A stretch of DNA of 64,000 nt from a virus. How positions within the stretch are numbered: the stretch's first letter is position 1; every line of letters starts with the position of its first letter. Shown here one piece after another: positions 2,024 to 53,758 of this stretch. Location of the stretch: positions 1 to 64,000 of the IMG/VR virus record IMGVR_UViG_3300037308_000217. One strand, written 5' to 3'. Below the pieces are notes generated by a model, which was not told the origin of the DNA, searched no databases, and saw only the letters and a list, made by a program, of their open reading frames with translations. The position numbers were made by a program, and so were the translations under genes.

Positions 2024-2052
2024 AATATACGGCATTATGCCGTGCATTGCAA
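2024..2052 (-). promoter_or_regulatory. Sigma70-type promoter with a spacer palindrome (copy 1)
   Basis: Minus strand reads TTGCAA-tgcACGGCATAATGCCG-TATATT with a 17-nt spacer. It lies in a 106-nt intergenic gap upstream of the PHP gene. Confidence 0.7.
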
Positions 2053-2075
2053 CTTCATTCGACGTGATTGGCTTG

Positions 2076-2411
2076 CTACTTCCGGGGAACCGCCGTGAAT
2101 AGCTCGACCCGCACCGCCCACCCCAAGTCGGTCAGCTTGACGCCCAGCACCGCGACAAAGTCCGGGTTGTACTGCTCGATCAGCTCGCGCAACGCCGTCT
2201 GCTCGGCTACCTCCCTGGTCAGCGTGGCATCGGGTATCAGGACAGTCACCACAGCCCCGACGCCCACCGGTGGCCCCCGCGGGTCCACCTTCCGCTCGTC
2301 GATCATGTGCTCGCATAGCCCCTCGTCCGCCCACCGTCCGCATTCCGGACAGTGCTCATTGCCCTGAGCTGGGCCGCAGCTCGGGCAGCGGGTGTCACCG
2401 CAAAAGCACAT
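2076..2411 (-). CDS. Cys-rich (zinc-binding) hypothetical protein
   Basis: MCFCGDTRCPSCGPAQGNEHCPECGRW... The ATG at 2411 follows GGAAGGGG at suitable spacing. Confidence 0.7.
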   Translation of the reverse strand: MCFCGDTRCPSCGPAQGNEHCPECGRWADEGLCEHMIDERKVDPRGPPVGVGAVVTVLIPDATLTREVAEQTALRELIEQYNPDFVAVLGVKLTDLGWAVRVELFTAVPRK

Positions 2412-3195
2412 CGCCATCCCCTTCCGCCGGCTTCTCGGCCGGCTGTGCAGGTTGCTCCTCCAGGAGCGGGCGACTCCCTGTAAATCCCGCCCACAGCCTG
2501 GCTTGGATCATCTGCTCCAGCTCGAAAGTCGTCTTGTACGCACCTGGCCGGATTGGCACCTGAAATCCCCACAGCTCGCGGGCTGCCCCGACCAAAACGA
2601 GCTGAAAGAACCGGCCGTGCGGAGCGCGCTTGGAACCGTGGCGCTGGCGCTGGGTGTCGCGCCGGTAGATCCGGCAGTGCACCAACTCGTGCAGCAGCGT
2701 CCCCAGGACGGCCCCACCGTTCTTGTCCGGATCGAAACCCCGCGGCAACCGGACCACCGCCTCCCGGCCACCCCAGGCCACCCCCGTCGAGTACCCACCC
2801 CCGTAGCGCGTCCGCCCGATCGTGATGGGGGGAATCGGCTCCCAGTCGTCCGGATGGACCTTCCGCAGCGCCTGCCACATCTCGCGCGCCCAGGTCTGCA
2901 AGTCCTTCCCCTGGATGCTGTACGTCTGGGGCGCCCGCTGCTTGGCCCGCTCCTGCTCGGCCGCCTTCCGGAAAGCCTGCGCCTCCCGGCGCTGAGCCCT
3001 CGCCCGCTTGGCCTTCTCCTGGCGCTGCACCACTGCCGCCACCCGCTGAGACTCCAGGCTTGGGCACACCCGGGCGACCAGCCGGCCCGTTTTCTTGGAA
3101 CAGGCCAGGCAGAAGCGGCGCACGTCGTCGCACCGAGGCTTAGACGGCGCCAACACCCCGCGCCCGCATATCTTGCACACCCAACGCTTTTGCAT
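2395..3195 (-). CDS. SprT-like zinc metalloprotease with an N-terminal zinc ribbon (ArdC-C-terminal-like)
   Basis: HExxH motif in LGTLLHELVHCRIYRR, N-terminal CKICG...CLAC, and a basic coiled linker. Confidence 0.7.
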   Translation of the reverse strand: MQKRWVCKICGRGVLAPSKPRCDDVRRFCLACSKKTGRLVARVCPSLESQRVAAVVQRQEKAKRARAQRREAQAFRKAAEQERAKQRAPQTYSIQGKDLQTWAREMWQALRKVHPDDWEPIPPITIGRTRYGGGYSTGVAWGGREAVVRLPRGFDPDKNGGAVLGTLLHELVHCRIYRRDTQRQRHGSKRAPHGRFFQLVLVGAARELWGFQVPIRPGAYKTTFELEQMIQARLWAGFTGSRPLLEEQPAQPAEKPAEGDGDVLLR

Positions 3196-3204
3196 GGCGC
3201 ACTC

Positions 3205-3393
3205 CTACTCCTCGACCGTGACCTGGCCGATCGTGTTGCCGTTGCTGTCCCGGACCGACATGCCGGGGTTCTGGCCGCTGGCGTGCTTGACCAGCACCCG
3301 CCGCACGCCGTCGAGCACATCGCTCAGCTCCTGCGCCATCCCGTTGTCCGCGAACGCCGCGTTGTCCGTCGAGAACTCGATCGTGATCTTCAT
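3205..3393 (-). CDS. Small hypothetical protein (62 aa)
   Basis: This is the C-terminal part of ORF 3205..3942. The ATG at 3393 follows GGAGGCTGCC. Product: MKITIEFSTDNAAFADNG... Confidence 0.6.
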   Translation of the reverse strand: MKITIEFSTDNAAFADNGMAQELSDVLDGVRRVLVKHASGQNPGMSVRDSNGNTIGQVTVEE

Positions 3394-3410
3394 GGCAGCC
3401 TCCAACGGCG

Positions 3411-3857
3411 CTACCAAAGCGCCGACTTTTCCCGCATCGAAATGAACTGGCCATCCCCGACGATGACGTGATCCACCAGCTCGATCCCCAGCAGCCCCAG
3501 CCCGTCCTTCACCCGCTTGGTGACCTCGCGGTCCTCCGGGGAAGCATTCAGGTCCCCGGACGGGTGGTTGTGCACCAGCATCACCCCGGACGATCCGGAA
3601 AGCAGGGCCGCCCGCGCGATGCCCGCGACATCCACCGGGCACCGGTCGCCCGTCCCCTGGCCCACCTGGACCGCGCCCAGCAGCCGGTGGCGCTGGTCGC
3701 AGTAGAACGCCATCATGTGCTCGCAAGCTGGGGCCCCGAACAGCATGTTGAACGCTGAAACCACAGCCAGGGGCGAGTCCAGCAACGGCCGGCTCTCGTA
3801 GGGCACCGACCGATCCTTGACCAGCTGCACGCTCCAGAGTGGCCGATAGCTCGTCAT
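3411..3857 (-). CDS. radC: RadC-like JAB/MPN domain protein
   Basis: JAMM motif HNHPSGDLNASPED. The start was moved to the ATG at 3857, after GAGGGAGGCTCCC. Confidence 0.85.
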   Translation of the reverse strand: MTSYRPLWSVQLVKDRSVPYESRPLLDSPLAVVSAFNMLFGAPACEHMMAFYCDQRHRLLGAVQVGQGTGDRCPVDVAGIARAALLSGSSGVMLVHNHPSGDLNASPEDREVTKRVKDGLGLLGIELVDHVIVGDGQFISMREKSALW

Positions 3858-3868
3858 GGGAGCCTCCC

Positions 3869-4087
3869 TCACGCGGCCAGGACAGCGTCCGCCGCTTTGC
3901 TCGCCCACTCCCGCAGCCCCGTGTCGGCCAGGTCAACGTCAACCCCGCCGCACTTGGGGCATCCCCTCATCGCAGCCGACATCGCAGCCCGGACCGTCCG
4001 GAAGCGGTGCCCGCACTCCAGGCACTGCCAGTCGCACCGGTCACCCAGCCGCGCCGCCAGCCCGTCCCGCTTCCGTCCCCGCTCCAT
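3869..4087 (-). CDS. Zinc-ribbon protein (72 aa)
   Basis: CLECGHRF...CPKCGG. The ATG at 4087 follows GGAAGGGAGGCGGGTC. It is the first gene downstream of promoter copy 2. Confidence 0.65.
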   Translation of the reverse strand: MERGRKRDGLAARLGDRCDWQCLECGHRFRTVRAAMSAAMRGCPKCGGVDVDLADTGLREWASKAADAVLAA

Positions 4088-4118
4088 GACCCGCCTCCCT
4101 TCCGGAACCTCCAACCAC

Positions 4119-4147
4119 AATATACGGCATTTTGCCGTGATATGCAA
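4119..4147 (-). promoter_or_regulatory. Sigma70-type promoter with a spacer palindrome (copy 2)
   Basis: Minus strand reads TTGCAT-atcACGGCAAAATGCCG-TATATT with a 17-nt spacer. An A/T-rich stretch (TTATTTGC) lies just upstream. Confidence 0.75.
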
Positions 4148-4188
4148 GCAAATAAAGAGAGGGCGCAACAGCCCGATTTTCCGGAAGA

Positions 4189-4226
4189 TTAACGGCCCCG
4201 TTGACCGGGATTAACGGAACCGTTTA
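4189..4226. promoter_or_regulatory. Two tandem small palindromes, TTAACGG-NN-CCGTT, with starts 22 bp apart
   Basis: gaTTAACGGccCCGTTgaccgggaTTAACGGaaCCGTTta lies 45-80 nt upstream of promoter copy 2. Confidence 0.4.
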
Positions 4227-4234
4227 TCGAGGGC

Positions 4235-4423
4235 TCAGCAAAACTTTAGGCATAACTGCTCGGGCTGAGGATCGCGGGGGAACGGCAACTCCTGCTGCGG
4301 GTCGGTCATGCGGTGCCAATCGCGGATTGCCTCAGTGAACTGCTGCGCGCTCACCTCATCCGGAACTGTAAGCGCAACGGTCACGTTCTTTGGAAGGAAC
4401 TGGACTTGGGATGTGCCAGCCAT
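4235..4423 (-). CDS. Small hypothetical protein
   Basis: ORF 4235..4435. The ATG at 4423 follows GAGGTGTTCG. An alternative GTG at 4435 overlaps the dNK stop (GTGA). Confidence 0.55.
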   Translation of the reverse strand: MAGTSQVQFLPKNVTVALTVPDEVSAQQFTEAIRDWHRMTDPQQELPFPRDPQPEQLCLKFC

Positions 4424-4431
4424 CGAACACC

Positions 4432-5455: not shown

Positions 5456-5501
5456 GCTGCCCTCCTACCAACCACATTGCGCAGACCACCCGCCGATCGC
5501 T

Positions 5502-5771: not shown

Positions 5772-5859
5772 CCCGAAATTGACCAGCGGAGCCCCTCCGC
5801 TCCCTCCAGGCTGCGCTTCCTGCCAGGGGTCGGTATCAGGAGCCGGCCCCCTCCCCGAT

Positions 5860-6159: not shown

Positions 6160-6166
6160 GCAGCCC

Positions 6167-7047: not shown

Positions 7048-7056
7048 TGTAGCCCC

Positions 7057-8739: not shown

Positions 8740-8749
8740 CTCGACCTCC

Positions 8750-8789
8750 AAATAAAGGGGGAAGGGGGAAGGGGTGGCCCCCTCCCCCC
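8750..8789 (-). terminator. Putative intrinsic terminator or G/C-rich hairpin
   Basis: Minus strand reads GGGGGGAGGGGG-cca-CCCCTTCCCCC followed by TTTATTT, directly after the DUF932 stop. Confidence 0.45.
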
Positions 8790-8805
8790 TCTCGATCGCC
8801 GTCCA

Positions 8806-10201: not shown

Positions 10202-10230
10202 AACATACGGCATTTTGCCGTACAACGCAA
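10202..10230 (-). promoter_or_regulatory. Sigma70-type promoter with a spacer palindrome (copy 3)
   Basis: Minus strand reads TTGCGT-tgtACGGCAAAATGCCG-TATGTT. An A-rich stretch (AAAAAGTCAAAAAAGGG) lies upstream. Confidence 0.7.
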
Positions 10231-10766: not shown

Positions 10767-11771
10767 CTAGCCCACCAGCAGCGGCCACAGGCACAGTACC
10801 AGCGGCCCGGAATCGAGGCGCAATGGGCTCCCAGCCGGCCCCAGGCAAACCCCGACCCTGGGCGTCCGGATGGCCTTGATCAGGGAAGCCAGCACCTTTC
10901 CCGATACCCAGATGTCCATCGGAACCCCTGGGGGCTCGCAAGGCAGGTCGATCGACAGCGGGGGCGGTTCACCGGCCACGGCCAGGGTGAGCCCACTCGC
11001 GCCCGCGTGGACCCGCACCCCCTGCACCGAGCCCAGCTTCTTCACCTGCTGGACCGCCTGGGCCAGCCGCTCGGTATCGACCGACATGCTGACGTAGGGG
11101 TGGACTTCCGGAATGAGGTTGGTGTCCGGGAACTTCCCCGGCGGCAGCAGCGTTGCCCAGCGCTTTTCCTCGCCCACGCGGGCGTAGAAGCGGCCGCCGT
11201 CGATTGCCAGCGCCACGTCCCCGGTCGGCCACCGGCTGAAAATATCTTTCGGGATGATGTGCGTCCCCTCGAAACCCAGCGCCACGCGCGCCTGGGTGAA
11301 CACCGTGGTATCGGTCGCCTCGACCCGGTCCGGGGCGACCCGCACCCCCGCCAGCGACCCCATCCAAGACGGCCCACAGAAGCCCGCGATGGCCAGCACC
11401 GCCGGCCAGTCCGGGCAGTACCGCCACCCGGTCCGCGGCGGTTCCGGAAATAGCGGGGAGTCCGAACCAGGCTTGGACGTGATTTCCTTGGTGGCCAGGC
11501 CGGCCGTCACCCGCAGAAACCCGTAGCCGCTGCCCTCCTCGATCTCGACCGCGGCCGACGCCGGGGCTGGCAGCAGGAGCTTGCTCAGCGCATCAACGGG
11601 CAACGCCCGGTACGGCAGCACCTCGTCCACCCCGATCGACATCCCCAGCTGGCTGTTCTGGAAGCCTACCCGGGGTCTTTCATCGGTCGCTACCGAGGCC
11701 GGCACCATCACGATCTGGTCATCGTTCCCGGCCATCCACAGCAGCCGGCGCAGCGCCTTTTCGAGCTTCAT
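10767..11771 (-). CDS. DNA polymerase III beta sliding-clamp-like protein
   Basis: 334 aa after trimming to the ATG at 11771 (ATGA coupling). GKFPDTNLIPEV resembles the DnaN G-x-FPDY-xx-VIP motif. It sits in the replication module. Confidence 0.45.
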   Translation of the reverse strand: MKLEKALRRLLWMAGNDDQIVMVPASVATDERPRVGFQNSQLGMSIGVDEVLPYRALPVDALSKLLLPAPASAAVEIEEGSGYGFLRVTAGLATKEITSKPGSDSPLFPEPPRTGWRYCPDWPAVLAIAGFCGPSWMGSLAGVRVAPDRVEATDTTVFTQARVALGFEGTHIIPKDIFSRWPTGDVALAIDGGRFYARVGEEKRWATLLPPGKFPDTNLIPEVHPYVSMSVDTERLAQAVQQVKKLGSVQGVRVHAGASGLTLAVAGEPPPLSIDLPCEPPGVPMDIWVSGKVLASLIKAIRTPRVGVCLGPAGSPLRLDSGPLVLCLWPLLVG

Positions 11772-18665: not shown

Positions 18666-18874
18666 TTATCCTCCGGAAGATGCTCCAACAAATAGCTGAT
18701 GTACCACTGCGCTTTTTCCAAGTCCTCGCGATAATGCCCCTTATGACGCGCCCTGCTCAGATACTTAATTGCGTTACCCAGGCAAAAGTCCTCGTGTAAC
18801 CCCTGGTCACGCAAAAATTCAATCACCTCGATTTTGCCCTGATTGTAATGCGCAGGATGGTCCACTCGATTCAC
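18662..18874 (-). CDS. DUF3310-family phage protein
   Basis: HPAHYNQGKIEVIEF...GNAIKYLSRARHKG...DLEKAQWY matches the family pattern as I recall it. Confidence 0.7.
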   Translation of the reverse strand: MNRVDHPAHYNQGKIEVIEFLRDQGLHEDFCLGNAIKYLSRARHKGHYREDLEKAQWYISYLLEHLPEDK

Positions 18875-22036: not shown

Positions 22037-24844
22037 CTAGATTTTCAGCGGTTTCTTCTCGGCCCAATTCGTTTCGGTGTACTCCACCGATGCGACAATC
22101 GGTGTCGGATTGAACTCGGGGTAGCTTTCCATCATCGCCTTAATCGCGCCCACCGACTCGACGATGTGGTCAGCCGGAATGTCGATCTGGATTTCATCGT
22201 GAACGGTGTTGACCAGCAGGATGGGCGAGCTGGTCGCCTTGGCCCACTTCCAGATCCGGACCAGGCTTTCCTTGGTCAGCTCAGCAGCAGTCCCTTGGAT
22301 CAACGAACCGATCGCCTGGCGCTCAGCGCGGCCGCGCTTCCAGTACGACAGCGAGCCCAGATCCGGAATGCGCCGCGGCCGGCCAAACAGGTTGAGGAAC
22401 TGGCAACCATTCAGCCGGCAGAACTCCCAAAAGTTTTTCCGCAGCTCCGCGATGCCGTGGTACTTCTGGAAAAACGTATTGAGGTATTTAGCCGCTTCAT
22501 CCACCGAGAGGCCCGCTTGCCGGGCAAACCCGGTCTCGGTCATGCAATAAGAATTACTGACGATCTTACCTGCTACAGTGAACCTGTGGCGGGGACCTGC
22601 GTCGAGGAGATCAAATACTCGCGTCTTTTTCGCCCCATGCGCTCGCTGGTATTGAGCAAATTTTCGGCTTGGGTGACCAACCTCAGATTCTCCGGAGAGT
22701 AGTGTCCCTCGTTGTCGATCCGTTCGAAAACCAAACCTTTGAAATCCGCATCCGGATACTTCTCCAGCGCCCACCGAATGAAATGCTCCCGCGATCTGAA
22801 AAGCACCTTGATCCCGCGCCCCTTGTACCGTTTCGATGAAATGTGAGTATCCCTCTCGCAACGCTGCACCATAGCATCGTATCGTCTCCCCAAGATGCCC
22901 GCCCTCCGATCGCCATACTTCCCCTGGCAAGTACAATTCCGAGATAGACCCCTCTTGACGTTGTCCAGAATTGCCCATTTTGTGATCCCGCAAACTACGC
23001 AGGTCATCTCGATAAAACGAGTCCTCCTCCCCTGGCGGCCAACCGGCATCCATTCCCATTTTCCGGTCAAACGCAGAGTACCCAATGGGAGTTTCGCCAA
23101 CCGCTCCAGTAGCAATTTTTCCGGAATATACCTGGGATGCGATTTTCCAGATCGGTACAAGGTCACCCCCCTCGGTGTAGACCTCATGCTCGGGGGTTGC
23201 TACCAGTCCGTCACACTCGATAACGTCACAAACCCCGCGGCATATCAAACCGGCGTGCCTCACCCAAGCTACCCCATCCCATAGCAAATGCCTATCCTTA
23301 ACCTGCTCGATAGGCACCAAGCCCTCATCGGTCAAGACAGACTGCCCTTCTGCAATGCACAAACCGAAATTCACAATTTTAGCCCGGCGCCGGTAGACCT
23401 TGTCATCGGACCCCCAGACCTCCATCGCCGTGCGGCTGTGGATGTCCCCGCCGGTCCGGTACACCTCCATCATCACCGGGTCGCGGCTGTAGAACGCGAG
23501 CACGCGCAGCTCGATCTGGCTGTAGTCGAAAAAGAACCGGGGCATCCGGGGGCCGCGCACAACGAACAGCCGCCGCACGCTGTAGGGGTCGATCCCCCCA
23601 TCGGCCAGGGGCTTGCCCGTGGCCTCCAGCGCGCGGTCGTTATCGTCCGAACTGAAATTCTGGAAGTTGGGGTTGCGGCAGCTCAGCCGGCCGGTATTCG
23701 TCCCGACCTGCTGGAAATCACCGTGCAGCATCCCATCGTGGCCGACGCGCGCCAGCAGGCTGCTGGTGTAGGTCGTGTCGATCTTGTGCGCCTCGCGCCA
23801 CTCCAGAATCTGCAACAGCACCGGCCAGGTCTTACCGAACTCGACCAGCACTTCTTCGTCCACCGCCAGCTTGTCCGCCAGCACCGCCGGCCGCCCCTCA
23901 TGGTTCGCAGCGCGCACCTCTTTTTGGCCGGCCTTGGTCAGCTTGGACAGCGGAACATTCAGGGTCTTGAGCAGGTAATCGCGCAGCTCGTCATCGCTGG
24001 CCAGGTTGAAAGGGAGCTGCATCTGCTTTTGCAGCTCGTCTTTCCGGAATCGCACGCGCTCGCTGAGCTGCTGGAGGTACACCAGGTCAACCGGCAGCCC
24101 GTTCTCCTCAGTCTCGTGCAGCACTCGGGTCAGGTCCATCTCGGTTTGCCACACGCGCGAGTAGGTGCGCGAGATGGCATGGCGGCCCTCATAGAACTGC
24201 CAGAGCCGCATCGCATAATCCACGTCGAAACAAGCGTACAAGCCCGCGACGTTGATGGGGACGTGGCTGTAGCCGACGCGCGACTTGTACTCGTCGAGCC
24301 CAGTGCCCATCGCCTTTGCGCCAGCCTCGACCCAGCGGTCCAGGCTGTGCTTGTTTTCCTTCGCCTGCGGGTCCCCCAGGTCCCGGGACGCCCGCTCCTC
24401 CAAGGTCGCCGAGTTGTTCTCGTCGTGAAACCTGGCCGCGATCATCGTGTCGTAGCGAGGCCCCAGGACCGCCCAGCGCTCCCTGGCAGCAAAATGCTCG
24501 TCGAACTTGATGTTGTGAGCGATCTTGAGCTGCTGGCTCCGGAACAGGTCGTTGACCGCCTGCCAGACCTGGTCCAGGGGCAGCTGGGGCTCACCGGTCA
24601 TGTGTCGGAAGGGGATGTACCAGCAGTGCGTTTCCCCTCCGGATGGCATCCAGCCCAGGGCAATCCCGCACGCTCGGGCATCCCGGTGCCAGGCCAGTCC
24701 GGAAGTCTCAAAGTCGAAGGCGAAAGCGGGAGCCGCGAGCAGCTCGGCCATGGCGGCCCGCAGCTGTTCCGGTGTCGTGACCAGCGCCTTACCGGGGGGG
24801 AAGGAAGTCGAGTAGGCGACCGCTTTTGCCTGAGCTGCCTGCAA
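22037..24844 (-). CDS. polA: Family-A DNA polymerase (3'-5' exonuclease plus polymerase domains) interrupted by an intein
   Basis: Exo motifs FDFETSGL, HNIKFD and YACFDVDY. Pol motif A is FFDYSQIELRVLA, motif B is RRRAKIVNFGL//SYCMTETGFARQ, and motif C is NTVHDEIQI. The TTG start at 24844 follows GGAGGGCTTTC. Confidence 0.9.
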   Translation of the reverse strand: MQAAQAKAVAYSTSFPPGKALVTTPEQLRAAMAELLAAPAFAFDFETSGLAWHRDARACGIALGWMPSGGETHCWYIPFRHMTGEPQLPLDQVWQAVNDLFRSQQLKIAHNIKFDEHFAARERWAVLGPRYDTMIAARFHDENNSATLEERASRDLGDPQAKENKHSLDRWVEAGAKAMGTGLDEYKSRVGYSHVPINVAGLYACFDVDYAMRLWQFYEGRHAISRTYSRVWQTEMDLTRVLHETEENGLPVDLVYLQQLSERVRFRKDELQKQMQLPFNLASDDELRDYLLKTLNVPLSKLTKAGQKEVRAANHEGRPAVLADKLAVDEEVLVEFGKTWPVLLQILEWREAHKIDTTYTSSLLARVGHDGMLHGDFQQVGTNTGRLSCRNPNFQNFSSDDNDRALEATGKPLADGGIDPYSVRRLFVVRGPRMPRFFFDYSQIELRVLAFYSRDPVMMEVYRTGGDIHSRTAMEVWGSDDKVYRRRAKIVNFGLCIAEGQSVLTDEGLVPIEQVKDRHLLWDGVAWVRHAGLICRGVCDVIECDGLVATPEHEVYTEGGDLVPIWKIASQVYSGKIATGAVGETPIGYSAFDRKMGMDAGWPPGEEDSFYRDDLRSLRDHKMGNSGQRQEGSISELYLPGEVWRSEGGHLGETIRCYGAALREGYSHFIETVQGARDQGAFQIAGAFHSVGAGEVSGCGFQRFGFRTDRQRGTLLSGESEVGHPSRKFAQYQRAHGAKKTRVFDLLDAGPRHRFTVAGKIVSNSYCMTETGFARQAGLSVDEAAKYLNTFFQKYHGIAELRKNFWEFCRLNGCQFLNLFGRPRRIPDLGSLSYWKRGRAERQAIGSLIQGTAAELTKESLVRIWKWAKATSSPILLVNTVHDEIQIDIPADHIVESVGAIKAMMESYPEFNPTPIVASVEYTETNWAEKKPLKI
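22553..23359 (-). mobile_element. Intein (269 codons, polymerase residues C496-N764) inserted in motif B
   Basis: Block A CIAEGQSVLTDEG, block B LVATPEHEVYT, block F RVFDLLDAGPRHRF, block G FTVAGKIVSN followed by +1 Ser. Removing it restores NFGL-SYCMTETGFARQ (compare NFGLIYGMSAFGLARQ). Confidence 0.8.
22573..23187 (-). CDS. HNH homing endonuclease ORF nested inside the intein in a different reading frame
   Basis: 204 codons offset by 1 nt from the polymerase frame. Motifs: CVVCG...CTCQG, GRRYDAMVQRC...YKGRGIKV and ERIDNEGHYSPENLRLVTQAEN. Local GC is about 50-55 %. The true start is uncertain (weak RBS at 23187). Confidence 0.7.
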   Translation of the reverse strand: MRSTPRGVTLYRSGKSHPRYIPEKLLLERLAKLPLGTLRLTGKWEWMPVGRQGRRTRFIEMTCVVCGITKWAILDNVKRGLSRNCTCQGKYGDRRAGILGRRYDAMVQRCERDTHISSKRYKGRGIKVLFRSREHFIRWALEKYPDADFKGLVFERIDNEGHYSPENLRLVTQAENLLNTSERMGRKRREYLISSTQVPATGSL

Positions 24845-26132: not shown

Positions 26133-26636
26133 TCATATTTCGCAGGTCGCCCGGACATCGCTGGCAAACGCGCTTTTCCGGACTCGATCACGCAATTTGT
26201 AGAGCGCTCTGGAGTCCCGGTCGTCGCAGCCGGCCAATGCCGGCAGGTCCGCCCCGTTGTCGAGCACCAGGCGCAGGCCCTCGCGCGCTTCGTACCGGCT
26301 GGCCGGGTCCCCGCTCGCTTCCGGTGGGGTCCAGCCCAGCCCCTCCCAGTCCCAGACCCGGGCCGCCAGCTGCCTCCGCAGACGCTCCCGGGTGGACCGG
26401 AACCTGGATGCCGAGAACACCGCCCGCCGGATTGCCCCCCGGACGTAGCGGATTTCATCGACCTCCCCGCCTCGGTGCTCCCGCTGGAAGCGCATCGAGG
26501 CCAGCCAGGCCACGGTCATCAACATGTTGCGGTAGTCGTCTTGGCTCCGCGCTTCCCCGTCGATCGACATCGACCGTGGCGCCAAACGACGTGCCCAGGC
26601 CCCAACCAAGTCCTCCCACTTTTTTAACGTGTCCAT
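26133..26636 (-). CDS. Hypothetical protein (possible transcription regulator; weak)
   Basis: 167-aa Arg-rich ORF immediately downstream of an operator-only palindrome copy. No firm motif was recognised. Confidence 0.5.
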   Translation of the reverse strand: MDTLKKWEDLVGAWARRLAPRSMSIDGEARSQDDYRNMLMTVAWLASMRFQREHRGGEVDEIRYVRGAIRRAVFSASRFRSTRERLRRQLAARVWDWEGLGWTPPEASGDPASRYEAREGLRLVLDNGADLPALAGCDDRDSRALYKLRDRVRKSAFASDVRATCEI

Positions 26637-26679
26637 TTGATCCCCTTGTTAGTGAAATTGTTACACTTTCGGTCCACCA

Positions 26680-26694
26680 ACGGCATATTGCCGT
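26680..26694. promoter_or_regulatory. Palindrome ACGGCATATTGCCGT with a TTGCGG -35-like box but a degenerate -10
   Basis: The spacing to the TTGCGG box is the same as in the four full promoters, but the -10 position reads TTGGTG. It lies in the 109-nt gap upstream of 26133..26636. Confidence 0.5.
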
Positions 26695-26745
26695 CTACCG
26701 CAAAAGAACTACCGTCAAGTTAGACGCACGCGAAGATGCCCACTA

Positions 26746-26997
26746 TTAAAGGGTTTTTCGGATCGCATCGATCATCTTGGCGAACTCATCCTCCAACCGG
26801 TTGATCACCGACTCGCGCCGCCGCGTGGGCAGCAAAGGCGCCAGCTCGATCAGCAGCTTGAGCGCCGCCACCGTGATGAAAGCGTTGCGGGGCACCCCCA
26901 GGAACCTGGCCACCTCGTCGATCAGGTCCCACGACCGCCTGGGGATTCGCATGTCGGTTTTCACCCGCGGCCCTATGTCTAGCCCTCGCCCTGGCAT
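26746..26997 (-). CDS. Ribbon-helix-helix (CopG/Arc-type) DNA-binding protein
   Basis: MRIPRRSWDLIDEVARFLGVPRNAFITVAALKLLIE shows the beta-strand, helix, helix pattern. Confidence 0.6.
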   Translation of the reverse strand: MPGRGLDIGPRVKTDMRIPRRSWDLIDEVARFLGVPRNAFITVAALKLLIELAPLLPTRRRESVINRLEDEFAKMIDAIRKTL

Positions 26998-27006: not shown

Positions 27007-28023
27007 CTACACCGCAGCCAGCCGGCCCGGGCTCTCACCCGCCGGCATCGGTGCGGCCGCTCTGAGTTGAGCCAGGTACTCGCGGGGCAGCGCGCCCGGG
27101 TCATAGCCTGGCGGGACGGTCACGATCCGCGCATCGAAGAACTGGGACAGGAACGGCAGCGTGGCCTGCATCTCGGCCGCCGCGTCCGAATCCCACATCA
27201 AGTCGAGCGAGCGCACCCCCGCCTGCATGAGCTTCGCGACCTGGAGCGGGGTGATGCGCTTGCCGAACGTGCAGACCGCGCTGGCCCCGACGTGGATGGC
27301 ATCGATCGGCCCCTCGGTCACGGCCACGCGGTCGAAAAAGCGGGCTCGGTCGAGGTTGAACAGCACCTGGTCGCTGGTCGCCGTCCCGGGCTCCCGCGGG
27401 GGATTGAGCGACTTCCGGAAGCCCGGGTCATTCGGCGCGTCCCACATCGCTCGCCCCTGGTAGTAGACCAAGATGCCGTTCTCAAAAACGGGGAACATCA
27501 AGCGGCCTCGATAGCGCCCCCGGTCGCACCAAAAAAGGCCGAAATCCCGCACGTCGTCGAACCCTATCCCACGGTTTACCAGATACGGCATATTGCCGTC
27601 AACAAATTTTTGGACCCCTTCCGGATAGGGAATGGCGACGGGCACTTGTGGATTGCCAATCGCATCGGCCATGAGGTCAGAACACGCAATTTTTTGCAAG
27701 TCCGCCGCGGACCACCAGGACCCCGCGACCAAATGGCTCAGCACTTGGTCGAGCGTCCAGTGCTCCAGCAGCACCAGGAGCGTGGCCAGGTTGCCCGCCC
27801 CGTCGGTGGTCAGGCGCTTTCCGAACTTGTCCGGCGGGGTCTGCCGCAGGCAGTGCCAGCAGTGCCACGCCCTCTTCTCGACGTTGACCACCAGCTTCTG
27901 CTTGCCGCACCGCGGGCAAAGCAGCTCCCACTCGTCACGGGTCGTACGCCGGCCCCCGCGCTCGATCAGGTAGCCCTGGAGGTCGAACCGCTGGAGCAGC
28001 GTTTGGAGCAGGCCGTGGTCCAT
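27007..28023 (-). CDS. dnaG: DnaG-like primase (zinc finger plus TOPRIM)
   Basis: CPRCGKQK...HCWHC zinc finger, TOPRIM VAVTEGPIDAIHV, and DLMWDSDAAA. Confidence 0.85.
   Translation of the reverse strand: MDHGLLQTLLQRFDLQGYLIERGGRRTTRDEWELLCPRCGKQKLVVNVEKRAWHCWHCLRQTPPDKFGKRLTTDGAGNLATLLVLLEHWTLDQVLSHLVAGSWWSAADLQKIACSDLMADAIGNPQVPVAIPYPEGVQKFVDGNMPYLVNRGIGFDDVRDFGLFWCDRGRYRGRLMFPVFENGILVYYQGRAMWDAPNDPGFRKSLNPPREPGTATSDQVLFNLDRARFFDRVAVTEGPIDAIHVGASAVCTFGKRITPLQVAKLMQAGVRSLDLMWDSDAAAEMQATLPFLSQFFDARIVTVPPGYDPGALPREYLAQLRAAAPMPAGESPGRLAAV
27585..27599. promoter_or_regulatory. Palindrome ACGGCATATTGCCGT inside the primase CDS (operator-only copy)
   Basis: The 15-bp palindrome is an exact match to the copy at 26680. 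No -10/-35 boxes are present at the usual spacing. Confidence 0.35.
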
Positions 28024-31234: not shown

Positions 31235-32782
31235 TCACCAAGCGAGTGAAGAAATCCGCCGGTACAGGTCCACTTCGGACTCGGCCACGTCCACCTGGAA
31301 CGTCGGCTCCTCATAGAACAGGCGCAGCCGGTCCTGCGAATGCTCCATCAACTTCCGGTGGTGCCGGTCGGCGAAGTCCACCAGGAGCGCCCGCTTTTTC
31401 CCGGGGGTCGCGGTGCACACGCGGTAGCTGAACTGCCGCAGCGTCACCGCAGCGTGCTCGCCCCGGGCGTAGACCAGCGCGTCGGCCTCGGGGATGTCGA
31501 TTCCTTCCCCGATCAGGCTGGTGCCGATCAGGATGCCGACCTCCTGGCCCTCCTGGAAGGATGCCAGCACCGCCTGGATGATCGGCCGCGGCCGCTGGGC
31601 GTGGATGAACTCGACCCTGTTGAACTGGGCACCGCGGCGCTTCTGCAAGGTCAGGTCGTCGCTGAGCGCTCGGGCAACCTGGCGCCCCTGCTCCCGGGTG
31701 CCCACCAGCACCAGCACCCGCCGGCCCTGCTCATGCAGGTAGCGGGCGATGCGCGCGACCAGGAAATTCCGGTCCTGGTTTTCGTGGATGCCCGCGCGCC
31801 CGTGGCCCTGCGTGAAGCCCATCCCCGACACCCCGCGCAGGTGCTTGGTGTCCACCGGGCAGAACAGCACGTTGGTCGGCACCAGGTAGCCGCGGTCCAG
31901 CATCTCCCGGGCCGTCACCCTGAAAATGGTATGGGACAGGAGCGCGTGCATCGCCATTGCGTCGGTCCCGCTCCGGAAAAACGTCCCCGTCATCCCGTAG
32001 CGGTAATAGATGTGCCGGCAGAACGCGAAAATCTGCTTGTAGGACGCCGAGGCCGCATGGTGGAACTCGTCCACCAGGATGACCTGGCGGGTTTCGTAGA
32101 ACTCGGCCGGCAGCATAGCCGCAGTAGCCGCGGTGCAAAGTACCACTGGCGATTTCCGGGATGGTTCCCAGTTAGAACCGATCAGATGGAAGGCGTAGTT
32201 TGCCCCCAGGAAACTCTCAAACACCGACAACGTCTGCGTCACGATGCCATCGGTGGGGGCGATGTAGACGGTCGGCAACCCCAACTTCCGGACCAGCTCG
32301 ACCGCAATCCTGGTTTTTCCGGACCTGGGCGGCATGTCCAGAACCCCCTGGCCGGAGTCGATGGCTTCCCGGACAGCCTCCTCCTGGTAGTTGCGCAGGG
32401 GAATGGTGGCGGGCTCAGGCAGGCCGTCCTCCGGGCGGACCCGTTGGTCCCGGACCTGGTAGGGGATGCTCCAGCTGGTGAGCAGGTTGGAAACCTGGGC
32501 CAGGAGCCCTGTGGGAAACCAGGGGAGAATGGTCTTGGGGATGTGGAGAAGCCTTACCCAGCCATCCCAGGTGATGTCCTCGCCCAGGTAGGTGTGCCCC
32601 TGCTCTTTTGCCTGGGCAATCTGGGTGGGGAAACGAAGGCAGCGATCGAGAGCCTGGAGGATGTTGGGGTCTGCTCCGGATACCTGGGTGCGATCGTTCT
32701 CGACCCAGAGCATGACCTGCGAAAGCGGTGGAGGGGTGGAAGTTTCAATTTTCATCTTTAGAGTATCTACTTCCATATACAT
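31235..32782 (-). CDS. Superfamily-2 DNA helicase (ResIII / UvsW-like)
   Basis: Motif I is MPPRSGKTRIAV and motif II is ILVDEFHHA. A helicase C-terminal domain contains LIGTSLIGEGIDIPE. Confidence 0.8.
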   Translation of the reverse strand: MYMEVDTLKMKIETSTPPPLSQVMLWVENDRTQVSGADPNILQALDRCLRFPTQIAQAKEQGHTYLGEDITWDGWVRLLHIPKTILPWFPTGLLAQVSNLLTSWSIPYQVRDQRVRPEDGLPEPATIPLRNYQEEAVREAIDSGQGVLDMPPRSGKTRIAVELVRKLGLPTVYIAPTDGIVTQTLSVFESFLGANYAFHLIGSNWEPSRKSPVVLCTAATAAMLPAEFYETRQVILVDEFHHAASASYKQIFAFCRHIYYRYGMTGTFFRSGTDAMAMHALLSHTIFRVTAREMLDRGYLVPTNVLFCPVDTKHLRGVSGMGFTQGHGRAGIHENQDRNFLVARIARYLHEQGRRVLVLVGTREQGRQVARALSDDLTLQKRRGAQFNRVEFIHAQRPRPIIQAVLASFQEGQEVGILIGTSLIGEGIDIPEADALVYARGEHAAVTLRQFSYRVCTATPGKKRALLVDFADRHHRKLMEHSQDRLRLFYEEPTFQVDVAESEVDLYRRISSLAW

Positions 32783-32961
32783 CTGATCCTCTACCCGAGG
32801 TCAATCATACCCCCATCCCCCTTGCCGCTCAGGGGAAGCGGGTCATTGGGGGATGAAATTGTGGGGGAGGAGCTACCGCCGGGCGGGCGATAGCCCTATT
32901 GATTATATTGCGTGAAGGCCCCCTGGCATCGCCCACTTCCCGAAAAAATCTTGATTGCGGT

Positions 32962-44100: not shown

Positions 44101-46736
44101 TTGTAGATGCGCGTGAAATACTGTTCGACGCTGCACCCCGCGCAGACCCAGACGTTGTCGTGAAAGACGCTGACCCCAGACCCGTTGACGTTCGGCATCT
44201 TGGTCACGGTCACGGCATGAGGAGCGCTGAAAGTGTAGCCCCCACCCAGCGCTGCATTCAGGATCTCGGAAACCTTGTCCGACGAATTGGGATCAAACCT
44301 CACAACACCCGTGCGGCCCTGGGGAATCCAGTACAGCTTGCCGGTGCTGTCATAGTCGGCCGGGGTCGGGACATAGGTTTCCGTCGTTGGGTCCGAGTTG
44401 GTCGGGATGGTGTTGGTAAAGTAGCAGTCCGCGTGCGGAGCGCTGAGGGCGCCTTTCTTCATCTGCAACCCGGTCTGCGGACCGGGAATGTAGGGAGAAC
44501 CCGCCAAGGTCAGTTGGTTGTTGCTGTCCACCGAGGCGACCAGAGCTTTGACCTCGCCGGCCTCCCCATCCTCGAAAGTGATCCACTCGCCGGCCACCAC
44601 CTCGGCCAGCAGATTGGCATTAAGGGCCGGATTGGTCACGGTGACGTTGTCCGCAGCCAGATCCCAGGAGTCGGTGCCCGTGAGCACGGTTTTCTTGTGG
44701 ATGATCTTCCAGGTCGCCCCGCTGTCCTCGGTGTACGCCAAACCGCCCGATTGCACGCCGTCGCTCCCAAACAGAATCCAGACGCGACCAGCCACATAAT
44801 CGCAGACCACGCCCCGGGCATTCTTGGACGGCATTCCCAGCGAGCCCATGCTGGCTTGCTTGCCCCACTTCGCCGTGCAATCGGGGTAGCGGGCATTCCC
44901 GCCGGGAGCCGGGTCGATCTGGTAGACGCAGTAGCCGACCGCATCGACCGCGTCATTGGTGGTGACCCAGAGTTTGCCGACATTGTCCACCGCGATGTCC
45001 CGCCAGTGTATGATTCCGGAAGGCATATTCGTGATGTCATTGTCGGCGTAGGGGTAGTCGTACCCCTCGTTGCACAGCTCTTTCCACCGGAGCAACCCAT
45101 AAGGGGCGTAAGTCGTGTTCTCCTCCCCCAAATCGAAGATCGCCCACCGGCAGGCTTGCTGGTCGTGGATAGACCGCATTGCGGGCCGCTTGTGGAGGGT
45201 GGTCGAGGCCAGCGCCTGAATCCGCTCGGTCATCCCAGTGAGATAAAGGTCGAACCCAGTGAGAGGGCTCAGATTCGGGCTCCAGGTGCTACCGTGGCTG
45301 TACCGACGACGCCGGAAAAAGTATTCCGCGATCGGTCCAGTCCGGACTTCCCAGTAGCAGCTTCCGGACGAAAAGCTCTGGTGGATGGTACTGGCATCCG
45401 TCTGCGCGCGGCCTGAGCTGACCCCAGTGATCAGGAAAATCCCAATCGAAGTCGGCGCGGAGTTATCCCAAACTGCAATGTACTTATTGATGTCATTGGT
45501 CGTGAACTGGTAGAAATTGTCGCTCACCTCATTGGAATTGAGCGTGGAGCCTGACTTTTTCCCCTCGATGCTCCCTTCCCGCATCTCCCAGGTCAGGCTG
45601 GACTCAGCGGCCAGCAAACGACCGCAGAAACCGAACTCGGCTGCAACGTAGGCGCCGACGATCTGGAAGGACGCAGTGGCCTGGTCCGCATTGACGACCG
45701 TGTACGTCCCATTGTAGCTGGTAGTGCCGGTGATGACGACCTGGTCACCATCTTTGAAGGTGTGGCCAGAGAATACCGTGGTGCCCGGGAGCAAGACATT
45801 CAGCTTGCCGCCTCCGGCGTCATTGACTTGGACGTAGTAGGTGGACAAGGTTGCAATGCCGCCAGCCACCGCTTGAATGAAGAACGTGTTGTTGTTGACC
45901 GAGTTGGTAGCGTCCTTGACCTTGACCTTCCGCCCTACGTCGGCAGACGTGAACGTGTAGCCGCTATCCGAAAATTGGTTTGTCGCTGCGATGGTCCCGG
46001 TGTCGGTGTACGTCGCCAGAATCGGCTGCCCAGTACCACCGCTTTTGGTGATGTAGACCTGATAGGCCATCGTATAGCTGCGGTTCTCCGGAGGGCTGTA
46101 GACCCCCTGCATCGTCAGATTGCCCTGCGACACCGCCACCTGGCCCGACTCATTGAAAAACGCTGAGCGTCCGATCGGGTGCTTGAAAACATTGCCGATC
46201 GTGGTCCCAGGCAAATCAACCGAGGTGATCAGGGGCCTGCCGAAAGTGGATGCTGGGAAATTGCCGACCGTATTGGGGTCAAACCAGCTATCCAGGTGGT
46301 AGACCGCCAGATTGGCTATATTGTAGGAGGGATCTGCCATCGCCACATCTTGGCCGGCCACCGGGTTATTCCATTCATAAGTACGGAACGTCTCAAAATC
46401 CCGCACTTTATAATCCGGGCCATTTCCAGGAGTGATCCAGGGCTCTCGGTAGGTGCTGTCATTCTGCTGGAGGTAGTAATGCAGTGGATTCCACAGCATC
46501 AGGCTGCGCTCTTTGTAGTAGCGCATTCCGGAGAATCGGTTGAACCCCATGCTGGCGAACAGCTGAGCATAGTAGGGCATCGTGCCGGTGTAGACCAACC
46601 CATTGAACAGCCACGTTCTGATAGCCGCTTGGGGCGCTGCGTTGATGGGGCAGAACACGGCATCGTCCCCCACCCTGAGCGTGGCATTCCCAAACGAAAC
46701 GACAGCGGCTTTGGTCTGCGGGGATTTCATGGTCAC
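41175..46736 (-). CDS. Giant (1853 aa) tail fibre / receptor-binding protein with Asp-box (BNR-like) motifs
   Basis: Asp-box-like motifs HGSTWSP, DSGATWKI and RDGKTWDL suggest a beta-propeller. Two YNG modules are present (GDQVVITGTTSYNGTYTVV and GDAVTVTGTTNYNGQYAVV). Confidence 0.65.
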   Translation of the reverse strand: MTMKSPQTKAAVVSFGNATLRVGDDAVFCPINAAPQAAIRTWLFNGLVYTGTMPYYAQLFASMGFNRFSGMRYYKERSLMLWNPLHYYLQQNDSTYREPWITPGNGPDYKVRDFETFRTYEWNNPVAGQDVAMADPSYNIANLAVYHLDSWFDPNTVGNFPASTFGRPLITSVDLPGTTIGNVFKHPIGRSAFFNESGQVAVSQGNLTMQGVYSPPENRSYTMAYQVYITKSGGTGQPILATYTDTGTIAATNQFSDSGYTFTSADVGRKVKVKDATNSVNNNTFFIQAVAGGIATLSTYYVQVNDAGGGKLNVLLPGTTVFSGHTFKDGDQVVITGTTSYNGTYTVVNADQATASFQIVGAYVAAEFGFCGRLLAAESSLTWEMREGSIEGKKSGSTLNSNEVSDNFYQFTTNDINKYIAVWDNSAPTSIGIFLITGVSSGRAQTDASTIHQSFSSGSCYWEVRTGPIAEYFFRRRRYSHGSTWSPNLSPLTGFDLYLTGMTERIQALASTTLHKRPAMRSIHDQQACRWAIFDLGEENTTYAPYGLLRWKELCNEGYDYPYADNDITNMPSGIIHWRDIAVDNVGKLWVTTNDAVDAVGYCVYQIDPAPGGNARYPDCTAKWGKQASMGSLGMPSKNARGVVCDYVAGRVWILFGSDGVQSGGLAYTEDSGATWKIIHKKTVLTGTDSWDLAADNVTVTNPALNANLLAEVVAGEWITFEDGEAGEVKALVASVDSNNQLTLAGSPYIPGPQTGLQMKKGALSAPHADCYFTNTIPTNSDPTTETYVPTPADYDSTGKLYWIPQGRTGVVRFDPNSSDKVSEILNAALGGGYTFSAPHAVTVTKMPNVNGSGVSVFHDNVWVCAGCSVEQYFTRIYNWATPSITRYHRSVGANNWPTAMVVPTGGATLNGPRIIQEPKTGQIYIFWRSSNNGPGSPYYGRIFTDVKPVNTTYFGTCYVGGAIVPVSPDGYWPGWIGSALLSSEFDSLGLATEFVAGYFNSDTIDAVLARNGGMLTCWPWVSYRWGGTSLGWKMAPLNQTWADCDFRNAAGGPHAENVPGDGWLGHGTKRVHDFPMEMECGLLARFDQQGGGTAQADEFVIDENMTFVAALGRIKDNTMTAHYEIDSHSRPTVLRLDEPVRGIGSLWNMVGGWDGGYVDDANDQAWPVPVRGIAEATHYNATGQTNYGVNFSTHLLNNPANPHYAVTLRIHDEYAKASGAVTGLDIFNVTGVGKATANEGAIFTSADVGKTIRIEGAATGGNNTAKVITALDGASPSATVILDSVWSADENDLAWRLRNIPATGYVSYDNYFVNAGYFMPSMVYKLYSSRDGKTWDLVRETKAFNGVAANDPVEKSGATGYIDPGVYFDSHGLNPWSQNWGPADNSASRAIIFDLRALPEHQRRRCFWKVHRENPNAVGGYYAQPATMALFDSSFVPLAPAALMPSDRDDPDYLACRVEPRAILFDSVANATGVANGYGNFTDLLSVSGETIFESSLPVVRFYAGTSIVESTSTNFLIAWVGKKIRCPRAQVTGGSYTGWMTITGQTTGTRITVDRTFSSLATGSITSVTDNGGQAVFNSAGHTLVNGDAVTVTGTTNYNGQYAVVNAVAGVSFEVGAAYVSSQTGTWDKGQVSVPYQVANFGPGDFLRFDDATTVFPYLGRPLTVMSYEIKDVNSGFLQVVSPSIPLAVASHFKIERPFTKFHTPYRDDSWWVNSANFDTGFNAGMDEFYGILAVADGAQFTVGGEDAGSRTAASGADTDGDGWNDTVTISPVVASWKYTGADWLLLYNGSVNATYRKWFKIKSISSGASTVIEVYEDEIPLSENFMWKICRRRDIQTRFVRCQVTLKEPA

Positions 46737-47422: not shown

Positions 47423-47431
47423 TTCCAGCTC

Positions 47432-48712: not shown

Positions 48713-48715
48713 CGG

Positions 48716-52443: not shown

Positions 52444-52488
52444 GGCCCAGTAGGCTGCCAGGAATCAGGAACAGTGGCAACCCCTGGG

Positions 52489-53703
52489 CTAGGCCGCCCG
52501 GGCTTCGGTTTCGATCTTGGTCGGGACGCAGCGGCTCAGGCAGGTTTCTTTCACGCCCTGGTACTCCCCGTGCCGCTTGACCGTCCCCTTCACCAGGTAG
52601 GTCCCGCCAATGTCCAGGCCCACATTCCGGCTGGAAGCCCAAACGAACCGGTGGCCGGCGGCATCCGTGAAGCGGTAGAACGTGGTGACCCCGAAATCCC
52701 CCAGCCACTCGTGCTGGCCGGTCAGGGTCAGCGTCCAAGTCTCGCGCTTCCCCACCGTCCCCACCCAGTCGTTGTTGACCCCGGCCTTGGCCGCCTCAGC
52801 CGCCGCAGCCTTCGCCAGGACCCGGTTGTGGGCGTTGATCATGCTGGCCGCGAGCCCGCTGGTCTGGGCCGTGGTGACCCCGACTCCGGAGAGCACCTTC
52901 AGGTCGTGCTCGTAGGAGTTTTTGGGGTCGAGGCCAGCCGCCCACGCGAGAGCGGCCGCAGCCGCCGCCTCGTGTTTCGCGGTGGGCTCGACTTCCCGCT
53001 TCCGGAGCGCCTCGCAGACCCTGCACACCGGCTTGGTGCAGGTCAGGAGGTGGAAGGCGTCATCCGCGGTGGCTGTCGTGCCGTCCATCCGGTCCCGGGC
53101 CGTGGCGCGCGACACCCAGCCCCAAGCGCTGGTCAGGGCCGCCACCTGGGACAGGAACAGTGGCATCGGAAGGACCCAGGGGGTGTTGGCCAGGCCGCCC
53201 TCGCCCCACTCCTCCCCGACCGCGTCCGGAATCCCCATCAGGAAGGTGGCCAGCTGGGCCAGGTCGCCCGGGTCATCGTGTCCCAGGAAGTCCGCCAGGC
53301 ACTGCCGGCCCACCCGCTTGATCTCCCCGCCCTCGTGCCGGACAACGAACGTGTCGTGCCGCTGCCGGACTTTCTGGCAGTGGTCGCACTCCGGTCCGGA
53401 ATCCCACAGCTCCGGCGGCACCGTCTCCCCGGGGACCTCCCGGACGATGGCCGGCCCCAGGTCGAAATTCAGGACCCCGATCAGGCTCCAGCCGGCCAGG
53501 CTGGGGGCCTCACCATTGACCTCGACCGCGACCAGGGGGAGCACCTCGTTTTTGCGGAAGGGGTGGGGGCGGGACCGCTTGACATCCAGAACCTGCCGCC
53601 AGGCGAAGGGCGTGCCGCACTTCGCGGCAGCCTTTTCGATCCGGGCCATCTTTTCCGCAAACCGGGGGAGGTTCGCTTCCGGAATCAGAAAACTTGCCCA
53701 CAT
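52489..53703 (-). CDS. Unknown protein (404 aa) with its own promoter inside the baseplate operon (moron-like)
   Basis: The ATG at 53703 follows GAAAGGAGGCGCGCG, 27 nt downstream of promoter copy 4. It contains CDHC...VGRQCLADFLG and a C-terminal beta-rich (OB-like) segment. Confidence 0.7.
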   Translation of the reverse strand: MWASFLIPEANLPRFAEKMARIEKAAAKCGTPFAWRQVLDVKRSRPHPFRKNEVLPLVAVEVNGEAPSLAGWSLIGVLNFDLGPAIVREVPGETVPPELWDSGPECDHCQKVRQRHDTFVVRHEGGEIKRVGRQCLADFLGHDDPGDLAQLATFLMGIPDAVGEEWGEGGLANTPWVLPMPLFLSQVAALTSAWGWVSRATARDRMDGTTATADDAFHLLTCTKPVCRVCEALRKREVEPTAKHEAAAAAALAWAAGLDPKNSYEHDLKVLSGVGVTTAQTSGLAASMINAHNRVLAKAAAAEAAKAGVNNDWVGTVGKRETWTLTLTGQHEWLGDFGVTTFYRFTDAAGHRFVWASSRNVGLDIGGTYLVKGTVKRHGEYQGVKETCLSRCVPTKIETEARAA

Positions 53704-53729
53704 CGCGCGCCTCCTTTCCTCACAAGAAC

Positions 53730-53758
53730 AATATACGGCATTTTGCCGTAACATGCAA
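53730..53758 (-). promoter_or_regulatory. Sigma70-type promoter with a spacer palindrome (copy 4)
   Basis: Minus strand reads AAAATAAAG-TTGCAT-gttACGGCAAAATGCCG-TATATT. Confidence 0.75.

Follow-up and report, generated by a model that had tools for sequence, protein, structure and literature searches.

Phage promoters built around a TacA-type palindromic operator, and a small ribbon-helix-helix protein as its candidate repressor

Positions 1 to 64,000 of the uncultured phage record IMGVR_UViG_3300037308_000217 (the window; about 58 % of a genome of about 110.4 kb, and the sequence from which our motif counts come) contain six exact copies of the 15-bp palindrome ACGGCAWWWTGCCGT (ACGGCA-N3-TGCCGT), at 2029, 4124, 10207, 26680, 27585 and 53735. 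Four of these fill the spacer of near-identical promoters, and the other two bracket the gene for an 83-residue ribbon-helix-helix (RHH) protein. We propose that the dyad is the operator of this phage protein, which would repress the four promoters by occlusion. Judging from sequence comparison and from analogy with characterized RHH repressors, we give this proposal a probability of about 60 %. The RHH protein probably also regulates itself.

The dyad is in clear excess over chance. No copy appeared in 100 dinucleotide-preserving shuffles of the window, where none is expected, and when two mismatches in the arms are tolerated the additional matches stay at background level. The original prediction, made from the letters of this DNA, had described four copies, and its coordinates for the promoter sites (2024-2052, 4119-4147, 10202-10230 and 53730-53758) are correct. 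The total is higher: it had mentioned the copy at 26680 in passing, and a sixth lies at 27585 within a primase gene. The motif search on the phage that it suggested was run over the window and the following 10 kb; all six exact copies fall in the window, and no further one occurs in the 10 kb beyond position 64000.

The four promoter copies are embedded in the following elements.

P1, 2024..2052, minus strand: TTGCAA-atg-ACGGCATAATGCCG(T)ATATT, then GGAGG and the ATG (2005) of a PHP-domain protein.
P2, 4119..4147, minus strand: TTGCAT-atc-ACGGCAAAATGCCG(T)ATATT, upstream of a block with a Zn-ribbon gene (ATG 4087) and RadC; ortholog at L014 15692.
P3, 10202..10230, minus strand: TTGCGT-tgt-ACGGCAAAATGCCG(T)ATGTT, upstream of a gene for a 69-residue protein (ATG 10155) and a DUF932 gene; ortholog at L014 9911.
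P4, 53730..53758, minus strand: TTGCAT-gtt-ACGGCAAAATGCCG(T)ATATT, upstream of the gene for a 404-residue protein (ATG 53703) and baseplate genes.

P1–P4 share a 29-bp layout on the minus strand, TTGCrn, three nucleotides and the 15-bp dyad overlapping TATrTT, and the predicted common architecture with its exact 17-nt hexamer spacing holds at every site. The -35 hexamers belonging to the dyads at 2029, 4124, 10207 and 53735 read TTGCAA, TTGCAT, TTGCGT and TTGCAT. Dyad and -10 hexamer share one base, the final T of the former being the initial T of the latter; the hexamer is TATATT, or TATGTT at 10207. Conservation runs on 3′ of the -10, as (T)ATrTTGTnnTTGnGAGG; the tract TTGTnnTTGnGAGG is followed at all four sites by a Shine-Dalgarno sequence and a start codon (2005, 4087, 10155 and 53703), so the gene block with a ribosome-binding site expected behind each element is indeed there. 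The 17-nt spacer lies within the 16–18 nt of sigma-70-type promoters, and the -10 hexamers match their consensus at four to five of six positions. The A/T-rich tracts described upstream are clear at three of the four sites. We had to discard the further notion that these are the only AT-rich islands, since others occur at 18809-18852, 22461-22585, 26617-26674, 32729-32796, 45458-45521 and 59956-60106.

The two remaining copies, which we call S5 and S6, belong to the locus of the candidate regulator.

S5, 26680..26703, minus strand: operator TTGCGG-tag-ACGGCAATATGCCGT without a -10 hexamer; 51 nt separate it from the preceding RHH stop codon and 44 nt from the gene for a 167-residue protein that follows.
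S6, 27585..27599, no strand assigned: intragenic operator within the primase gene, on the 5′ side of the RHH start codon at a distance of 588 nt; codons xxC GGC Axx xTG CCG Txx.
RHH gene, 26746..26997, minus strand: 83-residue candidate operator-binding repressor, with the β-strand R11-V-K13-T-D15-M-R17-I-P.
DnaG-type primase gene, 27007..28023, minus strand: hosts S6; its stop codon lies 9 nt before the RHH ATG.
Arg-rich protein gene, 26133..26636, minus strand: 167 residues, function not assigned, first gene 3′ of S5.

The 83-residue protein is, by sequence profile, an RHH protein of an unannotated family. It matches no Pfam or PHROG model. Across three related phages it is 82-95 % identical, with the segment GPRVKTD(M/L)RIPRRSWDLIDE invariant (for the neighbouring 167-residue protein, identity falls to 64 %). 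An exhaustive protein search yielded a family of 53 cluster representatives of 59-92 residues each, with the consensus RVKTDxRLPxxL...LGxPKNAFFxLAA; across a 51-member family the strand is kept as RVKTDxR(L/I)P. A profile of these 51 members matches MazE6 of M. tuberculosis (E = 1e-4) and CopG of plasmid pMV158 (E = 3e-4), the closest solved structures by profile, over their strand-helix-helix core, which places the family in the RHH superfamily; a profile of the 83-residue protein from three sequences already matches MazE6 (E = 0.011). In the AlphaFold2 model of the monomer (pLDDT 82), an extended stretch up to residue 19 precedes three helices (20-33, 37-55 and 58-82); the strand cannot form in a monomer.

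In the crystal structure of the TacA-class antitoxin KacA with its toxin KacT and DNA, residues R8, D10 and R12 of the β-strand contact bases, and R8A or R12A abolishes binding (PMC6698736). Aligned with this R8-I-D10-L-R12, the phage strand K13-T-D15-M-R17 has the acidic and the arginine positions in common and a lysine instead of the first arginine, whereas the strands of CopG (R-L-T-I-T) and MazE6 (K-T-A-I-S) lack both the acidic and the arginine position, and their operators differ too.

These results support one of the two binders that had been proposed for the element, the RHH protein at 26746..26997. The other was the Arg-rich 167-residue protein at 26133..26636, which we considered as a possibly sigma-like or other transcription factor. 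Its gene does lie directly 3′ of an operator copy, as had been stated (S5 sits in the 109-nt gap between the two genes), and the protein is Arg-rich and predicted to be all-helical. However, it has no Pfam or PHROG match and no recognizable DNA-binding domain, only two homologues turn up among 5.8 billion proteins, and its AlphaFold2 model (pLDDT 51) is unusable. Moreover, in distant relatives the operator persists behind the RHH gene and a different gene, for example one encoding DUF2924, follows. Being the first gene downstream of S5, the 167-residue gene is a likely target rather than a binder, and we regard its product as a highly improbable reader of the element. A Pfam scan of 56 small phage proteins for helix-turn-helix (HTH) or other DNA-binding domains returned zinc ribbons only.

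The neighbourhood of the RHH gene varies between relatives. A DUF2924 (PF11149) gene lies near the RHH gene and operator in L200 (10484-11104), L202 (10387-11232) and L203 (12465-13751); it is the first downstream gene in L200 and L202 and about 2.2 kb further on in L203. Its place in the window is taken by the 167-residue protein and a 356-residue protein, neither with a Pfam match. We also considered the RHH and 167-residue proteins as a toxin-antitoxin (TA) pair and rejected the idea: the operator lies between the genes and not upstream of them, and relatives have other genes in the downstream place.

The elements are conserved among related phages. A relative from another sample series, whose DUF932 protein is 84 % and whose 165-residue protein is 64 % identical to those of the window, has the element at three orthologous positions: as TTGCCAtttACGGCAAAGTGCCGTATAGTTGTTCT upstream of its DUF932 gene, as TTGCACtatACGGCAAAATGCCGTATATTG after its dNK and 62-residue-protein genes at the contig end, and between its RHH gene and the gene for the 165-residue protein. 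In pairwise alignment the identical positions cluster in the A-tract, TTGC, the dyad and TAT, and the flanks have diverged. Two independent assemblies of this relative stop inside the element (L014 15692-15712 and L016 6489-6509), as would be expected if a repeated 45-bp element disrupts short-read assembly; fragmented contigs may therefore under-count copies.

The operator also travels with the RHH gene over much longer distances. We fetched three distant RHH-family loci by protein identity alone. The first, L200 (a 112-kb contig, GC 59 %), has two CGGCA-N3-TGCCG sites where about 0.03 are expected; both lie in TTGACA-N4-dyad-TAyTGT, and one is 166 nt past the RHH stop codon. L203 (87 kb, GC 52 %) likewise has two sites against about 0.03 expected. 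One of these, TTGCAAacaCCGGCATTATGCCGGTATATT, is 64 nt past the RHH stop, and the other, located in the primase gene, precedes the RHH start by 588 nt, exactly as in the window. The promoters that hold the dyad 64-166 nt past the RHH stop read TTGACA or TTGCAA followed by TATTGT or TATATT. A scan of IMG/VR with a looser pattern gave 29 matches, a chance-level number, three of which (L227, L228 and L204) combine an RHH-family gene with a dyad-promoter about 60 nt past its stop codon; the strand of the L204 protein reads R-L-E-V-R, as in TacA. S5 itself is conserved in L013 and L005, and its counterpart in L200, L203, L227, L228 and L204 is a complete promoter.

The position of S6 is conserved in L013, L203, L227, L228 and L042 (the dyad inside the primase gene occurs in L227, L228 and the metagenome loci L042 and L087), and the codon pattern xxC GGC Axx xTG CCG Txx recurs in six lineages, with different residues encoded (D/T/C, N/I/T and M/V/L) and the arms kept. 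This suggests that the DNA rather than the protein is constrained here; L005 differs at one base of an arm. The distance between S5 and S6 is 905 bp in the window and 891 bp between their counterparts in L203.

In another account, the sites are just recent duplicates of one strong promoter cassette and the dyad is a passenger without regulatory role. The near-identity of the four promoter sites over about 45 bp fits such an origin, as does the break of the relative's assembly inside one copy, which is what repeats do. Yet the copies at 26680 and 27585 keep the dyad without a -10, the dyad core persists in relatives with a different -35, loop and -10, and it is invariant between orthologous sites while the flanks diverge. 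We consider recent duplication very unlikely to be the explanation.

What kind of protein would read this dyad? The DNA in the crystal of KacA and KacT (PDB 5ZGN) is AAATGTACGGTTATTAACCGTACATGA, with the core ACGG-N7-CCGT (PMC6698736), and a 2026 preprint on a Klebsiella TacAT system writes a mutated operator, OP1*, as GTggAGCATTTGCTccAC, of the same general form. The phage dyad belongs by sequence to this GTACGG-N7-CCGTAC class of operators placed over a core promoter, with four of the six copies in a -35/-10 spacer. We compared the dyad with LexA, Fur, CRP/FNR, NrdR and MerR boxes and with the sigma-54 -24/-12 element, and the sequences do not fit.

The likeness extends to the whole promoter. 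We scanned 185,579 species genomes and a metagenome collection for the composite motif TTGC-N5-ACGGCA-N3-TGCCGTAT, which gave 65 and 114 stretches, respectively, with 187 matches in total. At 97 of the 187, an open reading frame (ORF) within about 260 nt encodes a TacA-type R-L-E-A-R strand, with an N-terminus of the form ..TARLEARIS.DLH..LKRAAELQGRTMTDFVV.., and at 100 loci an ORF matches a hidden Markov model (HMM) built from those TacA-type proteins. The three representatives that we tested are TacA1 proteins by Pfam (PF08681, the former DUF1778), with E values between 2e-16 and 3e-29, and the solved structures closest to these cellular proteins are the DUF1778 antitoxins KacA and AtaR. Downstream sequence was sufficient at 72 loci, and 38 of these continue with an ORF of at least 140 residues that has a GNAT-like motif. 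The consensus of 78 distinct cellular elements, TTGC..tGTACGGCAattTGCCGTAT, is essentially the phage 29-mer. About 100 tacA-type genes (L021-L199) share this promoter/operator, 8-30 nt before the Shine-Dalgarno sequence; the genome records of these loci come from Alpha- and Betaproteobacteria, Terriglobia, Planctomycetota, Desulfovibrionaceae and others. Because the core and spacing are those of the KacA operator and the placement in the promoter is that of tacAT operons, the phage dyad appears to be an operator of the TacA-class RHH type.

The same comparison opens the way to another reader: the host's own TacA, or its TacA-TacT complex, could bind the phage operators, so that the host module represses phage promoters or the phage senses the module, with the phage RHH protein playing no part or a competing one. 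Cellular tacA promoters of the same -35/dyad/-10 layout occur in many phyla, TacA-family proteins have been shown to bind this operator class, and the phage protein is by HMM not a member of the TacA family. On the other hand, phages ranging from 52 to 64 % GC, presumably with different hosts, have the operator together with the phage RHH gene, and elements conserved in a phage lineage are hard to square with a target of host defence. Nor is a host regulon visible: in the scan of 185,579 species the composite motif occurred at a single place at most in any one genome, and no representative genome shows a multi-site host regulon. We think it unlikely that a host protein is the principal reader.

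A further possibility dispenses with a dedicated regulator: the palindromes would be hairpins of intrinsic terminators and the hexamers would restart transcription, making each site a terminator-promoter cassette. A terminator scan flags three of the four sites, with a stem of 6-9 bp, a 3-nt loop and the T-rich tail ATATTGTTCTTGT; the RNA folds have energies of -9.6 to -13.2 kcal/mol (z-scores -0.9 to -2.9), and the S5 counterpart in L005 is followed by TTTTT. But the stems are short, and the tails are interrupted, with no clean U-tracts. The arms, moreover, are conserved as sequence and not by covariation, being always CGGCA/TGCCG in distant phages while the loops vary. The same dyad stands in cellular tacA promoters, a class known to be protein-bound, and one copy lies within an essential gene, where termination would do harm. 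Termination is thus quite unlikely as the main role of the dyads. We did note a strong hairpin elsewhere, at 8761-8791 on the minus strand just 3′ of the DUF932 gene: a G-run/C-run stem, GAGGGGGGAGGGGG-CCA-CCCCTTCCCCCTTC, with a T-rich tail, which is probably an operon terminator; a comparable G-run/C-run pair lies at the equivalent place in the relative (L014, about 11085-11135).

Repression by the phage RHH protein would work as follows. By analogy with KacA, AtaR and TacA, two RHH dimers would each place a β-sheet in one of the ACGG(CA) half-sites, which are spaced by one helical turn. At P1–P4 the dyad fills the spacer and overlaps the first -10 base of what would be a host sigma-70-type promoter, and since it covers both the spacer and the -10 edge, a bound protein would block RNA polymerase. 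We favour repression over activation because of this operator position and the behaviour of TacA-class and other RHH proteins. Several operons would then be under one negative control, namely the PHP nuclease, Zn-ribbon/RadC, DUF932 and baseplate blocks. S5 and S6, bracketing the RHH gene, would probably mediate feedback on its expression and control read-through into the genes for the 167-residue and 356-residue proteins and the polymerase, by a roadblock or a loop of about 0.9 kb. The original prediction had proposed one shared DNA-binding regulator, either a repressor or a factor that redirects RNA polymerase. That a set of sigma-70-type promoters answers to one such regulator, with the RHH protein as candidate, is strongly supported by comparison with TacA-type promoters, the KacA core and the operators beside RHH homologues in distant phages; for the redirecting of RNA polymerase, nothing speaks.

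Several observations weigh against the proposal. The relation of the phage protein to TacA is weak: it has no match to Pfam TacA1 (PF08681) even at E up to 10, hhalign finds similarity in the RHH core only (E = 0.0015, probability 17 %), our local TacA HMM scores it at 1.1 bits, and the top Foldseek matches (Arc, TacA2 and AtaR) are not significant (E ≥ 0.84). With similarity this weak, the sharing of the operator may be convergence. A host TacA or TacAT of the same specificity could bind instead of, or along with, the phage protein. The -35 hexamers match TTGACA at only three to four of six positions, for which reason the site at 2029 alone passes a consensus promoter scan at 9 of 12; the host may follow other promoter rules. 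S5 has no -10 in this phage, and the palindrome is absent from L202 (GC 41 %), a distant locus of the RHH family. The temporal logic of a single repressor is unclear, because P4 precedes baseplate genes and P1–P3 precede genes of DNA metabolism. Finally, about 74 of some 110 kb were inspected (the window and the 10 kb past its end).

How does the predicted system compare with known ones? It is closest to the RHH antitoxins TacA, KacA and AtaR of type II TA modules with GNAT toxins. The operators agree in the ACGG-N7-CCGT core and its spacing (KacA reads GTACGGTTATTAACCGTAC) and lie over the core promoter in both cases, and the cellular consensus matches the phage 29-mer almost base for base. 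The strands resemble each other in their basic/acidic/arginine order (R8-D10-R12 in KacA, R-L-E-A-R in the TacA-like proteins and, with lysine in first place, K-T-D-M-R in the phage). By contrast, the phage protein lacks a TacA1 HMM match and has a different C-terminal helix, and no GNAT toxin gene is adjacent to it or found in the 74 kb inspected (no acetyltransferase domain was detected in the 56 small and 20 larger proteins scanned). Whereas a TacA-type module is one self-regulated operon, the phage operator occurs at a minimum of four operons and at two non-promoter sites, in a large, apparently virulent phage.

Among phage repressors, Arc and Mnt of the immI region of Salmonella phage P22 are RHH proteins too: each represses a sigma-70 promoter by binding, as a dimer of dimers, to a palindrome that overlaps it. 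The likeness lies in a phage-encoded RHH protein and a palindrome over a promoter, with binding a matter of prediction in our case and Arc the top but non-significant Foldseek match. The operators are unrelated, however, no sequence similarity was detected, and Arc and Mnt serve one small divergent promoter region in a temperate phage rather than a dispersed set of promoters. Dispersed operators at promoter and non-promoter sites are known from temperate actinophages, as the stoperators of L5 gp71 and the conserved inverted repeats of phiC31, which are read by HTH immunity repressors. There, too, a short operator is repeated at promoters and inside transcription units with one phage-encoded reader (here predicted). 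The present system differs in its RHH protein and perfect dyad, and no integrase or immunity module is seen in the inspected phage DNA. Thus the TacA operator class of RHH repressor and operator is known; what would be new, judged by sequence, is a toxin-less, unannotated RHH family in large phages, with operators at several promoters and also at two sites outside promoters.

The window belongs to an uncultured, myovirus-like phage with nearly all genes on the minus strand. Proteins identical to those of the window are encoded by a pair of Logan contigs from a single run (86.8 kb and 23.2 kb) and by one contig of 110,400 bp. Replication and repair genes in the window include those for a family A DNA polymerase, DnaB helicase, primase, RecA and SbcCD, and the structural genes those for a Phi812-type tail tube, baseplate J and tail-tube/sheath initiator proteins. 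Among 50,697 GenBank phage records there is no close relative: megablast of 25 kb gave no match, and tblastn with the DNA polymerase nothing above 30 % identity. IMG/VR scans with a 22-nt motif, a baseplate-region protein and the primase likewise revealed no close relative. No tRNAs were found and no Rfam family matched.

Other features of the genome deserve mention. The hexamer TCCGGA is about 8-fold over-represented in the window, with 166 sites where base composition predicts about 22 and an order-4 Markov model 72, both within genes and in between; the octamer TCCGGAAG has 48 copies against 2.6 expected. The excess of TCCGGA extends to a close relative (L005, L014), and L200, L202 and L203 are not among the enriched loci; it could reflect a host signature, a methylation site or another recognition site. 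One TCCGGA lies in the spacer, of about 17 nt, of a near-consensus sigma-70-type promoter without the dyad (59973-60001, minus strand: TTGACA and (T)ATTAAT). This promoter sits in a 707-nt gap without genes (59850-60556), of lower GC and without an Rfam match, after the tail-tube gene. The DNA polymerase gene (22037-24844) contains, at 22553-23353 on the minus strand, a 267-residue insertion that is absent from a relative's 647-residue polymerase. The insertion starts NFGL|CIAEGQSVLTDEGLVPIEQV and ends ...KIVSN|SYCMTE, and at 54 % its GC content is below the 64 % of the window; it resembles an intein, with no Pfam intein or endonuclease domain reported.

For an uncultured phage family with genomes of about 100 kb, these findings provide a testable transcriptional wiring in which one small RHH protein would act on dispersed operators in host-type promoters. 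They define an RHH family not covered by Pfam or PHROG models and predict the DNA that it binds, and the 29-bp element and its small repressor would make a compact, orthogonal promoter/repressor pair for synthetic biology. They also show that the operator of the widespread TacA/KacA/AtaR antitoxin family is present as a regulatory element in phages, and it can now be asked whether phage regulators and TA defence modules read each other's promoters. In the boldest version, which we hold to be unlikely, the phage RHH regulon and host TacA-TacT modules share an operator code and cross-talk during infection, the phage element being a captured, toxin-less TA derivative turned into a multi-promoter switch. 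If so, the phage RHH protein may bind the host tacAT promoter and alter antitoxin supply and the abortive-infection response; conversely, host TacA or TacAT may bind P1–P4 and silence phage operons as a defence.

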